Part shown: in pieces, positions 1,192 through 4,312 of the stretch
Layout: each line of letters opens with the position of its first letter
Numbering within the stretch: position 1 is the first letter of the stretch
From: a virus
UHGV virus genome: UHGV-0021747
Strand: one strand, 5' to 3'
DNA length: 30,815 bases
The notes under the pieces: model-generated
Seen by the model: the letters and a program-made list of their open reading frames with translations, nothing else
Databases searched by the model: none
What the model was told of the DNA's origin: nothing
Position numbers and translations under genes: made by a program

Positions 1192-1286
1192 CGGCAGTAC
1201 AGCGAAACAACCCAAGCCAGTAAGTGGGGAAATAACACTGGCAGCCACTGAAAGATGAACCTCCTGCCTTATGGCAAAAAAGATTC

Positions 1287-1315
1287 TTTGTGGTGGCGGA
1301 CTGATGGAAAGACAT
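1287..1315. repeat. 29-bp direct repeat, copy 1 (tttgtggtggcggactgatggaaagacat)
   Basis: Exact 29-bp match with 1658..1686; seen directly in the sequence. Confidence 0.9.
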
Positions 1316-1410
1316 CGGATAGAATAAAACAGTGGCTAGGGTAGCTCCCGAAAAGCGGAATCGTCACCGCCAGCCACTGAATCTATGACGAACAACTAGA
1401 CGAGGTTGAT

Positions 1411-1653
1411 ATGAGTGAAATTGATAAAATAATAAATGGTACATGTAACTTTCAATCAATACCGCCAGGTAGTTATGTAAAACAATGTAGTGAAATAGTT
1501 AATGGTCAGCTTGTAATGTCAAATGCAGGACGCGGAGTTTCTGTGGATGAAAAAAAATCAATAAATGAAGCCCTGTTAAGCATCAATGTTTTTGACTTGT
1601 TTCGCCCATCTTGGGTTATCTTGCAAAATAGTAGCCAATTCCCACATTATTGA
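1411..1653 (+). CDS. Hypothetical protein (AT-rich moron ORF, 80 aa)
   Basis: ATG preceded by a GAGG Shine-Dalgarno. The ORF is markedly AT-rich relative to its flanks and is bracketed by the 29-bp direct repeats. No family recognised. Confidence 0.55.
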   Translation: MSEIDKIINGTCNFQSIPPGSYVKQCSEIVNGQLVMSNAGRGVSVDEKKSINEALLSINVFDLFRPSWVILQNSSQFPHY

Positions 1654-1657
1654 TAAT

Positions 1658-1686
1658 TTTGTGGTGGCGGACTGATGGAAAGACAT
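1658..1686. repeat. 29-bp direct repeat, copy 2
   Basis: Exact match with 1287..1315; starts 4 nt after the stop of the 1411..1653 ORF. Confidence 0.9.
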
Positions 1687-1723
1687 TCGCTGAATCGATG
1701 ATGAACAAGTGGAAGAGGTTGCT

Positions 1724-1894
1724 ATGGTTTCCGTGAACAAAGATCCGAAGGAAGGCGTTGAATACATCACTGGTGCTGATGGTGTGAAAAGGCCAATGGC
1801 TTATTACAAAGCGGCCGAAGAGAGGGCAAGAATGGAAAATCCCCCTAAATGCGGATCATTTTTCGACATGCTGGACCTTCCATGGAAGTTGTGA
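1724..1894 (+). CDS. Hypothetical small protein (56 aa; alternative GTG start at 1709)
   Basis: ATG with a GGAAGAGG Shine-Dalgarno. Its translation-initiation region is a diverged copy of the one in front of the 1411 ORF. Confidence 0.45.
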   Translation: MVSVNKDPKEGVEYITGADGVKRPMAYYKAAEERARMENPPKCGSFFDMLDLPWKL

Positions 1895-1904
1895 ACAACT
1901 AACA

Positions 1905-1927
1905 GGTCGCTCAGGCGGCCTTTTTTA
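1905..1927 (+). terminator. Rho-independent terminator candidate
   Basis: Hairpin ggtcgc-tcag-gcggcc (6-bp stem, one G-U) followed by ttttttatt. Confidence 0.4.
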
Positions 1928-2033
1928 TTGCCATTACAAAAGCCATTCCCTACAGAGTGGCTTTGATAATGGCTTATACCCTACACGGGATAACTTAACT
2001 GATATCCCTTTTAACGGATAAACGGAGCCAACA

Positions 2034-2474: not shown

Positions 2475-2903
2475 ATGAATATGGCGACTGAACCAAAAGC
2501 TGGTCGCCCCTCTGATTATATGCCGGAGGTGGCTGACGATATCTGCTCGTTGCTTTCTTCTGGCGAAAGTTTGCTGAAAGTATGTAAGCGTCCTGGTATG
2601 CCGGATAAGTCCACTGTTTTCCGCTGGTTGGCAAAGCATGAGGATTTTCGCGACAAGTACGCGAAGGCAACTGAGGCACGAGCTGATTCTATTTTCGAAG
2701 AGATATTCGAAATTGCTGACAATGCGATTCCAGATGCTGCCGAGGTGGCAAAGGCAAGACTTCGCGTTGATACCCGCAAATGGGCGCTGGCCAGAATGAA
2801 TCCCCGTAAGTATGGCGACAAGGTAACTAATGAGCTTGTCGGCAAAGACGGTGGCGCAATCCAGATTGAAACATCACCGATGAGCACTCTATTCGGAAAA
2901 TGA
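2475..2903 (+). CDS. terS: Terminase small subunit (Terminase_2-like)
   Basis: N-terminal motif KAGRPSDYMPEVADDICSLL...GMPDKSTVFRWLAKHEDFRDKYA is typical of this small-terminase family. The stop overlaps the terL start as ATGA. Confidence 0.8.
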   Translation: MNMATEPKAGRPSDYMPEVADDICSLLSSGESLLKVCKRPGMPDKSTVFRWLAKHEDFRDKYAKATEARADSIFEEIFEIADNAIPDAAEVAKARLRVDTRKWALARMNPRKYGDKVTNELVGKDGGAIQIETSPMSTLFGK

Positions 2904-4312
2904 CCTTGATTAATCCTATCTTTGAACCGTTTATTGAGGCGCATCGCTACAAAGTCGCCAAAGGCGGTCGAGGTAGCGGTAAATCATGGGCAATTGCGAG
3001 GCTGCTTGTTGAAGCGGCGCGTCGGCAGCCTGTGCGTATTCTCTGCGCTCGTGAACTGCAAAACAGTATCAGCGATTCGGTAATCCGGTTGCTTGAAGAC
3101 ACCATAGAGCGGGAAGGGTATTCGGCTGAGTTTGAAATTCAGCGTTCAATGATTCGTCATCTCGGAACGAATGCTGAATTCATGTTCTACGGCATAAAAA
3201 ACAACCCGACGAAGATTAAATCGCTCGAAGGCATTGATATCTGCTGGGTGGAAGAAGCGGAAGCGGTAACGAAGGAATCATGGGATATCCTGATACCAAC
3301 CATCCGTAAGCCGTTCTCTGAAATATGGGTGAGCTTTAACCCGAAAAACATCCTCGACGATACCTATCAGCGATTCGTCGTAAATCCTCCCGATGATATT
3401 TGCCTGCTGACGGTGAACTACACCGACAACCCGCACTTTCCTGAAGTCCTCCGTCTGGAGATGGAAGAGTGTAAACGCAGAAACCCGACACTGTATCGTC
3501 ACATCTGGCTTGGTGAGCCAGTAAGCGCAAGTGATATGGCAATCATCAAACGTGAATGGCTTGAAGCCGCAACCGATGCGCACAAGAAACTCGGATGGAA
3601 AGCGAAAGGCGCTGTTGTTTCTGCACATGACCCGTCAGATACAGGGCCGGATGCTAAAGGTTATGCATCGCGTCACGGTTCGGTAGTTAAGCGCATTGCC
3701 GAAGGTCTGCTGATGGACATCAACGAGGGGGCTGACTGGGCTACTTCGCTGGCGATTGAAGACGGTGCTGACCACTACTTGTGGGATGGTGATGGTGTCG
3801 GTGCAGGGCTACGCAGACAGACGACGGAAGCGTTCTCCGGTAAGAAAATCACCGCCACGATGTTCAAGGGCAGCGAATCGCCATTTGATGAAGATGCACC
3901 ATATCAGGCTGGAGCATGGGCTGATGAAGTCGTGCAGGGCGACAACGTTCGCACTATTGGCGATGTGTTCCGCAATAAGCGAGCGCAATTCTATTACGCG
4001 CTGGCTGACAGGCTGTATCTGACATATCGGGCGGTTGTTCACGGTGAGTATGCAGACCCCGACGACATGCTGAGTTTCGACAAAGAAGCGATAGGCGAGA
4101 AGATGCTGGAGAAGCTGTTTGCAGAACTGACGCAGATTCAGCGCAAATTCAATAACAACGGGAAGCTTGAGCTAATGACTAAGGTCGAAATGAAGCAGAA
4201 GCTCGGTATTCCATCTCCTAACCTGGCTGATGCGCTGATGATGTGTATGCATTGCCCGGCATTGGTCCGCGAAGAAACAGAAATATACGTTCCCTCATCC
4301 TCCGGTTGGTAA
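2900..4312 (+). CDS. terL: Terminase large subunit (PBSX/Sf6-type, headful packaging)
   Basis: Walker A KGGRGSGKS near the N-terminus, 470 aa, and a strong resemblance to the Sf6 gp2-type large terminase as recalled. Confidence 0.95.
   Translation: MTLINPIFEPFIEAHRYKVAKGGRGSGKSWAIARLLVEAARRQPVRILCARELQNSISDSVIRLLEDTIEREGYSAEFEIQRSMIRHLGTNAEFMFYGIKNNPTKIKSLEGIDICWVEEAEAVTKESWDILIPTIRKPFSEIWVSFNPKNILDDTYQRFVVNPPDDICLLTVNYTDNPHFPEVLRLEMEECKRRNPTLYRHIWLGEPVSASDMAIIKREWLEAATDAHKKLGWKAKGAVVSAHDPSDTGPDAKGYASRHGSVVKRIAEGLLMDINEGADWATSLAIEDGADHYLWDGDGVGAGLRRQTTEAFSGKKITATMFKGSESPFDEDAPYQAGAWADEVVQGDNVRTIGDVFRNKRAQFYYALADRLYLTYRAVVHGEYADPDDMLSFDKEAIGEKMLEKLFAELTQIQRKFNNNGKLELMTKVEMKQKLGIPSPNLADALMMCMHCPALVREETEIYVPSSSGW

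Follow-up and report, generated by a model that had tools for sequence, protein, structure and literature searches.

A close parallel to the locus that we present here is the pid moron of phage P22, situated between orf25 and orf80 (Cenens et al., 2013, PMC3573128; PMC8835761). We have analysed a stretch of 30,815 nt of the virus genome UHGV-0021747 (the window), which belongs to an Sf6/P22-like (Lederbergvirus) phage or prophage (97% to Sf6 over the structural genes within 2400-27000). Positions 1192-1973 of the window are the hypervariable moron or cargo slot of the Sf6/P22-like late operon, between rha and the DUF2560 and terminase genes. This is the pid moron locus already described for P22, and it holds here a moron led by a known RNA motif, int-alpA (Rfam RF02996). 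Like pid, the cargo of the window lies downstream of a conserved block ending in a 29-bp sequence (the 29-mer) and upstream of the DUF2560/orf80 gene, varies by presence or absence, deviates in base composition, is followed by a terminator, has predicted expression signals of its own and includes an ORFan. However, pid is on the opposite strand and has a weak promoter and a 174-nt 5' untranslated region (UTR), whereas the cargo of the window is co-oriented with the late operon, is led by int-alpA and consists of two cassettes stacked one after the other.

The int-alpA motif (Weinberg et al., 2017, PMC5737381, in whose main text it is not mentioned) takes its name from the integrase and alpA genes close to it, and is listed as a small RNA (sRNA). 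The window has its sequence and its three-way junction, above the curated threshold, and the closing stem P1 covaries. The neighbourhood that gave the family its name, which is not a structural criterion, is not found here, as the copy in the window sits in the late operon (rha to terminase); the 129 phage instances that we analysed are likewise in late or morphogenesis regions, directly before the Shine-Dalgarno (SD) sequence and ATG of unrelated cargo. A further difference from the Rfam model is the complementarity of the P3 loop to two leader sites, partly beyond the 3' end of the model. To our knowledge, int-alpA has so far been assigned no function.

We consider it likely that the window contains a slot with two tandem cassettes brought together by an accidental crossover, the first of them led by an int-alpA leader.

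Contents of the Slot and Origin of the Tandem

The 29-mer (TTTGTGGTGGCGGACTGATGGAAAGACAT) is found exact at 1287-1315 and at 1658-1686 (plus strand), on both sides of an AT-rich open reading frame (ORF) of 80 aa at 1411-1653 on the plus strand (ORF80; GC 34.2% vs. 46.6% for the window). It occurs nowhere else in the 30.8 kb, even with three mismatches, and 100 dinucleotide shuffles gave an expectation of zero. These repeats and the ORF between them had been pointed out, correctly, in an earlier note on this DNA, which took them for the footprint of a one-gene cassette inserted by recombination at a conserved linker and proposed a comparison with Sf6/P22-like relatives. Empty sites with a single 29-mer do exist among them. 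Aligned over the interval from the 29-mer to the DUF2560 start, the relatives display a series of states: empty, with a single 29-mer and then CGGTTATTGCAGAGRCCATTCAATGAGTGGYCTCGACAATGGC (Sf101, CUS-3); ORF80 alone, with 29-mer, leader, ORF80, TGATAATTAATTATTAAATT and terminator in this order (STEC308); ORF56 alone, with 29-mer, CCGCTGAAT..., ORF56 and terminator (Escherichia coli C4, LF82, phage Gally); a tandem of ORF80 and Gp49 (E. coli isolate 48); Gp49 alone (Sf6 gene 66); an ORF of 23 aa; and pid on the opposite strand (P22, BTP1). Every one of these cassettes rejoins the backbone at ACAAAAGCCATTCCC, the right boundary.

Relative to the empty site, the insertion in the window covers ca. 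1319-1960 and holds two ORFs, ORF80 and ORF56, rather than one. Several features expected of morons are present. At one and the same position, close relatives are either empty (Sf101, CUS-3) or carry other cargo (Sf6, P22, C4, STEC308); GC is deviant in ORF80 (34% vs. 47% for the window) and not in ORF56 (47%); and an intrinsic terminator is predicted at 1904-1929, which in the single-cassette state comes directly after ORF80. What stood of the earlier proposal is therefore a moron-type cassette with insertion polymorphism; what did not is the reading of the 29-mers, which are no footprint of insertion at a linker, given that the 29-mer is single in 142 of the 143 loci that have it, and that the join next to the second copy has at most 1 nt of homology.

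The two halves of the arrangement can be traced separately. From 1658 to 2040 the window has 100% identity to L248, a contig with ORF56 only, the match beginning with the first base of the 29-mer of that contig; 1191-1657 differ at 4 positions from an ORF80-only locus (L007). The overlap at the join is of 1 nt or less: identity to the latter extends one base beyond 1657, and identity to the former does not extend to the left of 1658. We read 1657/1658 as an illegitimate recombination junction, to which the ORF80-type parent contributed the sequence up to TGATAAT[T] and the ORF56-type parent that from [T]TTGTGG onward. Recombination inside shared sequence, as expected of a linker, is not what this arrangement displays; its join is outside any shared sequence. 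A single illegitimate crossover at this point, between an ORF80-type and an ORF56-type genome that carried different cargo in the same slot, would be enough. It would have landed immediately before the tail of the backbone in the second parent, and this tail would have been carried in, so that 29 bp of backbone are now present twice. On its left the 29-mer would then be cut off by an arbitrary join, and on its right it would stop at the point from which the two cargos no longer follow the common backbone.

The complete genome of E. coli EC01307 contains this arrangement too (99.2% identity), and this independent occurrence indicates that the tandem is not an assembly artefact. It is a rare one: only 1 of 5,426 complete E. 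coli genomes has it with a coverage of at least 80% of 1150-2100, and EC01307 is also the only one of the 143 loci with two copies of the 29-mer. Moreover, in the ORF80-only locus the stop codon of ORF80 is separated from the terminator by 12 nt missing from the window, and a simple deletion in the tandem could therefore not yield the ORF80-only state. Other tandems have other junctions (ORF80 with Gp49, and MKKFMQAL-ORF56'), indicating that the stacking of cassettes recurs and is not site-specific. In the tandem of ORF80 and Gp49 (L008, 760-800, against L132, 1-65), the Gp49 leader keeps a diverged 29-mer end (AAAACATCTTTAACAA vs. AAAGACATCCTAATCAA). The left boundary of the slot, AAAGACAT, also resembles the right one, AAAGCCAT, a resemblance that may favour stacking.

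That ORF80 entered an ORF56-type genome as a 371-bp unit with one 29-mer, by recombination at the 29-mer as linker, seems improbable to us. No other cassette of the slot lies between two 29-mers, the loci being single-copy with the exception given above, and the left edge of the second copy abuts the ORF80 stop codon, with no more than 1 nt shared with the donor backbone. The ORF56-only state does exist, and is exactly what homologous recombination between the two 29-mers would regenerate; the 29-mer also ends, on its 3' side, at a real mosaic boundary, and both are as this explanation would have it. However, a free circle of 371 bp has no known source, neither integrase nor transposase nor inverted repeats were found nearby, and ORF80 travels, together with a predicted promoter, a leader and a terminator of its own, into a backbone devoid of the 29-mer (contig L247).

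A local tandem duplication of one ancestral cassette, with ORF80 and ORF56 as diverged paralogues, hardly deserves consideration. The 29-mer and the leader are both doubled with a period of 371 nt, as such a duplication would produce, but the translations of the two ORFs have no resemblance by inspection, they differ in GC (34 vs. 47%), each is found alone in many genomes with a separate history, and everything from the second 29-mer onward is 100% identical to an independent ORF56-only contig, which already refutes it. Insertion of a transposon or insertion sequence (IS) with target-site duplication was also discarded, as there are no terminal inverted repeats and no transposase among the ORFs, and the second copy belongs to the neighbouring module; in addition, 29 bp are far more than the usual target duplications. 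So was an integron cassette, there being no integron-related or recombination-site family among the Rfam matches in 400-2600 and no neighbouring integrase. The likeness to integron cassettes is in the organization, i.e., arrays of small unrelated ORFs, promoterless or with a single promoter, in one slot with recurring structured boundary elements. Unlike integrons, the slot has no integrase or attC-like site, the repeated element, located 5' of the ORF, consists of an RNA leader that includes an SD, and exchange appears to be by general recombination.

Boundary (linker) sequences at the mosaic joints of lambdoid phages are reportedly described in the genome papers of HK620 and Sf6. The GenBank record of Sf6 carries such annotations ("bsq7; boundary sequence," L278, 313-360), with none at the 29-mer, and mosaic boundary sequences are thus an established annotation in this phage group. 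The slot has similar short conserved flanks of swappable modules, GACAT and ACAAAAGCCATTCCC being common to at least five cassette types. The duplicated 29-mer differs from them in that it did not act as a linker in this event, because the join adjoining it is illegitimate. Hence the 29-bp repeats would record one accidental join in a known hypervariable slot, and no mechanism of cassette insertion; in this respect our contribution is largely a clarification.

The int-alpA Leader of the Window

The RNA that precedes ORF80 covers 1329-1391 (plus strand), where RF02996 matches over the full model (1-71) with 42.0 bits (gathering score 35.8, E 9e-7). Its helices are P1 (1330-1337/1372-1379), P2 (1339-1341/1347-1349) and P3 (1355-1358/1367-1370, with the loop AAUCGUCA at 1359-1366), and the minimum free energy fold of the leader gives the same three-way junction. 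By blastn, ca. 85 nt of the leader are 80-88% identical to phage sequences of Enterobacter, Vibrio, Edwardsiella, Pantoea, Klebsiella and Pseudomonas. No other Rfam family in 400-2600 gave more than sub-threshold chance matches (asX2, mir-458, Proteo-phage-1 and others), and ARAGORN detected no tRNA or tmRNA in the window. A hammerhead-like junction (CUAG ... GAAA) was dropped, as no ribozyme family of Rfam matched.

Downstream of the junction two short sites are complementary to the P3 loop. Site 1, UGACGA (1386-1391), is the perfect complement of loop positions 1361-1366 and could form a loop-tail pseudoknot. Site 2, GACGA (1399-1403), overlaps the SD sequence GAGG (1402-1405) and sits in the loop of a hairpin at 1393-1410 (CAAC/GUUG, arms 1393-1396/1405-1408) that the predicted folds also contain and that is directly followed by the ATG of ORF80 at 1411. 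On the 5' side, a hexamer resembling a -10 box, TAGAAT (1320-1325, plus strand), lies 4 nt upstream of P1 and 8 nt upstream of the GGC core, and is the predicted promoter of the moron. A consensus scan also gave a promoter-like site (TTGATA, 16 nt, AATAAT; 10/12) at 1406-1433, across the start codon of ORF80, probably a by-product of the AT-rich cargo.

Put together, the first cassette would be an autonomous moron made up of the -10 box (1320-1325), the leader (1329-1410) and ORF80, with its own terminator in the single-cassette form. Transcription would start at the base of P1 from a promoter with only a -10 box, and in the window the transcript is predicted to be bicistronic, with ORF80 and then ORF56, ending at 1929. 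The P3 loop might pair either with site 1, as a pseudoknot that leaves the SD free, or with site 2, occluding it, and the choice between the two would tune the translation of whichever ORF is downstream. In riboswitches of the preQ1-II and SAM-II classes a pseudoknot competes with pairing of the SD. The int-alpA leader is similar in that a conserved element of its junction or loop is complementary to the SD region, and in that an alternative partner could free the SD. It differs from them in that no ligand, protein or signal is known for it, and a decoy site 1 and an SD site 2 are suggested by covariation only.

The second cassette has a remnant of the same leader. ORF56 (1724-1894, plus strand; 56 aa, with an alternative GTG start at 1709) belongs to phrog_5425, of no known function (E 2.3e-39, profile from residue 4). 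It is preceded at 1687-1723 by the part of int-alpA located 3' of P1 (CGCUGAAUCGAUGAUGAACAAGUGGAAGAGGUUGCU), promoter box and RNA core having been deleted. The duplicated translation-initiation region of the earlier note corresponds to this: the repeat is real (32 of 40 positions identical, ungapped, between 1374-1413 and 1687-1726, the next best of ca. 61,000 40-mers of the window on both strands having 21/40), and what is repeated is the 3' leader of int-alpA, intact before ORF80 and truncated before ORF56. In the ORF56 leader the match between site 1 and site 2 has been lost, and in several ORF56-only variants the SD has decayed too. A 72%-identical homologue of ORF56 is preceded by a full int-alpA-like leader with a TAGAAT box (L277), which indicates that ORF56 was once an int-alpA cassette that later lost its 5' part. 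The second cassette would then consist of ORF56 with a decayed int-alpA leader, followed by the shared terminator at 1904-1929.

int-alpA Across Phages

We scanned IMG/VR with the conserved core and obtained more than 120 loci; the 129 phage instances mentioned above were analysed. All the loci from the scan that were tested against Rfam passed the threshold (9, besides the window and the ORF80-only locus L007), and the empty and ORF56-only loci tested gave no match to int-alpA (e.g., the ORF56-only L006). In 124 of the 129 instances an SD and a start codon open an ORF within 30-110 nt (five of these ORFs run off the end of the contig). The 119 complete downstream proteins form 33 unrelated families (single linkage, E below 1e-4) and include, judging by N-terminal sequence alone, proteins of DUF551, GIY-YIG, HNH and KilA-N type together with many small ORFans. 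Within the P22-like slot, the same 29-mer, leader and terminator GGTCGCTNAGNCGGCCTTTTTT surround at least five different ORFs, so that leader and terminator behave as 5' and 3' linkers for ORF exchange. These, and not the 29-mer, are the effective linkers of the cassettes, and cargo turnover could proceed by homologous recombination between the constant leader and the constant terminator, with the ORFs being swapped.

Evidence for the structure comes from the variation among instances. Four of the seven pairs of P1 have compensatory changes (on both sides), as do all four pairs of the SD hairpin CAAC/GUUG (helix 5), and the covariation score of both helices is 0.220 against 0.103 for shuffles, none of 500 reaching it. 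The P3 loop is complementary to two sites of the leader, one a few bases after P1 and the other overlapping the SD; the latter ends at a modal distance of 7 nt (range 1-10) before the start codon in 19 loop classes. Among 10 loop classes taken conservatively as independent, nine have in their own leader a perfect complement to the loop of at least 5 nt (29% for mismatched loop-leader pairs, permutation p 0.0004), and eight have two or more complementary sites (4.4% for mismatched pairs, p below 0.0001). For example, the loop TGAACC is found with GGTTCA, GTCCTA with TAGGAC and AGGAC, and TCGCTA with TAGCGA and AGCGAGG. Of 44 independent upstream contexts, 21 have a hexamer resembling a -10 box whose end is 6-11 nt ahead of the core (0-7 in control windows of equal width), and nine of those with the hexamer have the extended TGn. 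One contig (L015, 1660-1727 and 3843-3914) carries two int-alpA copies on opposite strands.

Judging from these sequence patterns, int-alpA would be a promoter-proximal leader for translational control. Beyond this, we tentatively suggest, with rather less than even confidence, that it is a widespread and portable moron expression leader, in which the P3 loop toggles between the decoy site and the SD region of any ORF recombined behind it. On this same tentative suggestion, phages of Escherichia, Salmonella, Enterobacter, Edwardsiella, Pantoea, Klebsiella, Vibrio and Pseudomonas would share one regulated cargo slot, and the invariant nucleotides of the junction would sense some signal (a protein, a ligand or the state of the ribosome).

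A number of points weigh against the interpretation of the slot and of its leader that we favour. The order of events, with the tandem arising from single cassettes and not the reverse, would follow from an argument of parsimony. A standard two-hexamer sigma-70 scan called no promoter at 1320, because there is no good -35, and a clear -10 box stands where it is expected in only about half of the independent contexts. Some copies without it instead follow, reading them by eye, tRNA-like 3' ends (L046, L012, L024) or terminators, and in the former case tRNA processing could create the 5' end. P2 and P3 are invariant in the set of instances, because the search pattern fixed them, and they provide no covariation evidence. 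Since MAFFT misplaces site 1 in divergent leaders, the pseudoknot rests mainly on the position-free permutation test. The Rfam type of int-alpA is "Gene; sRNA" and not cis-regulatory. Finally, in the leader of the ORF80 homologue on contig L247 the pairing of P1 and P3 in the core is broken, while loop, site 1, site 2 and SD are intact; given that ORF80 and leader persist with a decayed core, the core is not indispensable for retention of the gene.

The last two of these points would also fit an int-alpA that is not a translational leader in cis, and acts rather as a 5' structure protecting the mRNA or as a cleaved trans-acting sRNA, the complementarity serving for instance self-targeting. We regard this as unlikely, if less so than the alternatives for the 29-mer. 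A stem at the extreme 5' end is a known stabilizer of mRNA, as in the ompA 5' UTR, the family is classed as an sRNA gene, and the leader of L247 was kept with its core degraded. However, the SD and start codon stand within 30-110 nt in 124 of the 129 instances, with site 2 at its modal 7 nt before the start, and site 2 both overlaps the SD and covaries with the loop, which would be needless for pure stabilization or for action in trans.

If the favoured interpretation of int-alpA as a leader for translational control is right, this orphan Rfam motif gains a concrete and testable role, that of a constant leader before at least 33 unrelated cargo families, with covarying complementarity from loop to SD and a shared terminator. 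A regulatory leader would account for the ability of phages to express genes that they have just acquired, with no new signals having to evolve. It would also be a marker for the annotation of cargo genes that are candidate defence, anti-defence or host-modulating factors, and a compact natural module of translational control.

The Backbone Block and the 29-mer

The first 29-mer is the end of a conserved non-coding backbone block of ca. 124 nt (1192-1315, plus strand) that is nearly unchanged in P22-like phages regardless of the gene upstream (rha, KilA-N and others) or the cassette downstream. The first copy (1287-1315) is thus the 3' tail of the backbone, and its final GACAT is the left mosaic boundary of the slot; the second (1658-1686) is the backbone tail that would have arrived with the ORF56 module, as part of the tract identical to the ORF56-only contig. 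In the 143 loci with the 29-mer, the sequence after GACAT is CGGTTATTGC (82 loci, either empty or with pid), CGGATAGAAT plus int-alpA (23 loci), CCTAATCAAG (Gp49, ca. 16), CCTAATTTCA (the 23-aa ORF, ca. 11) or YCGCTGAAT (ORF56, 6 loci). With at least five unrelated continuations, the GACAT end is a true mosaic boundary.

We have considered whether the 29-mer is a functional element, such as a binding site for protein or RNA or part of a promoter, whose duplication was selected to serve both ORFs. Its place in a strongly conserved and non-coding block, whatever the neighbours, is what such an element would have, and GUGGUGGC within it can pair with GCCAC at 1244-1248. Yet there is no further occurrence in the window, the duplication is limited to one rare lineage, and only the last 29 nt of the block are doubled, with an arbitrary junction as left edge. 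Besides, the fold z-score of the block (-1.8) is not significant, and the sole Rfam match over it, Proteo-phage-1, is at chance level (16.8 bits vs. a gathering score of 42, E 7.5). We find a selected duplication of this kind improbable, and hold to the 29-mer as a backbone tail doubled by the accidental join.

No gene was recognized in the block. A minus-strand ORF at 1181-1315, whose start is the CAT of the 29-mer, was rejected as a gene on the distribution of variable sites by codon position (11:14:12), with 11 synonymous vs. 31 non-synonymous variants and a frameshift in P22; given that this ORF is non-coding, some non-coding function of the block is plausible. Small plus-strand ORFs across the 29-mer (the homologue of "orf25" annotated in Sf101, MAKKILCGGG..., and MNLLPYGK...) were also rejected, as they lack an SD and their start or frame is lost in some variants, e.g., L267. 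The block does contain the third partial copy of the leader repeat (cagccactgaa, at ca. 1240) that the earlier note had listed, the sequence cagccactgaa being the 3' strand of P1, the closing stem of int-alpA. It is a 17-mer (CACTGGCAGCCACTGAA, 1236-1252, plus strand) that matches 15 of 17 positions of 1365-1381, on the 3' side of P3 and P1. This is the weakest of the repeated elements; a 15/17 match is not rare within 4 kb, so that its proximity is the notable feature, and possibly it is the remnant of an older leader.

The ORF80 Protein

ORF80 is a real gene under purifying selection, with a dN/dS of 0.22 against its 72%-identical homologue in L247. This homologue is the one whose P22-like backbone lacks the 29-mer (region 2895-3005 of the contig), and its extended -10, TGATATAAT, is perfect. 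The protein had been called unrecognized, and so it is after our searches: there was no match in Pfam, PHROG or PADLOC, and its AlphaFold2 model (pLDDT 66, three helices) had no match with E below 1 in BFVD by Foldseek. A word-indexed search of 5.8 billion proteins gave homologues in 6 clusters, near-identical or 70% identical, all at the same kind of locus. The sole matches of an exhaustive phmmer search were large bacterial surface proteins with CotH, dockerin or cohesin domains, in which residues 4-47 of ORF80 (1420-1551) have ca. 30% identity to each of 9-13 tandem Cys-containing repeats of 41 residues (summed E-value 3e-11). A function derived from this likeness was discarded as too weak; one Cys of the repeat and its His are missing from ORF80. 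From its position, our guess would be a host- or phage-interaction factor expressed by the prophage, and as a rare ORFan under purifying selection it is a reasonable candidate for phenotype screens.

Gene Order and the Right Boundary of the Slot

The genes around the slot are those of the Rz spanin (54-446) and the Rha-family regulator (rha, 649-1191) on its left, and on its right the DUF2560 protein homologous to P22 orf80 (2034-2276), the orf59c homologue (2278-2457), the Sf6-type small terminase (2475-2903) and the large terminase (2900-4312). The predicted intrinsic terminator (1904-1929, plus strand; AGGTCGCTCAGGCGGCCT plus a T-run), the 3' linker common to all the cassettes of the slot, lies within a stretch (1896-1932) with 97% identity over 37 nt to one annotated as tRNA-Arg in Enterobacter phage CobraSix; as stated above, ARAGORN gave no tRNA in the window.

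The terminator is followed at 1930-1973 (plus strand) by a long hairpin, the right boundary of the slot, with an outer stem GCCAUUA/UAAUGGC, an inner stem AAAGCCAUUC/GAGUGGCUUU and GATAAT in the 3' arm. The fold z-score of the region 1895-2040 is -6.5, and the stems vary in a compensatory manner (GAGGCCA/TGGCCTC in P22, GAGACCA/TGGTCTC in CUS-3, AAAGCCA/TGGCTTT in the window, and also CAGGCA/TGCCTG). Since a U-tract is missing, the hairpin is no terminator of the standard type; it may have a role in processing or be associated with a promoter. A hairpin with a GATAAT or GACAAT box is also found in the empty sites L001 and L004, in P22 (L002) and in L013, L016, L047 and L278 (840-870), and in other phages the hairpin-plus-GATAAT module occurs as well immediately before int-alpA; it is also present after gene 65 of Sf6.

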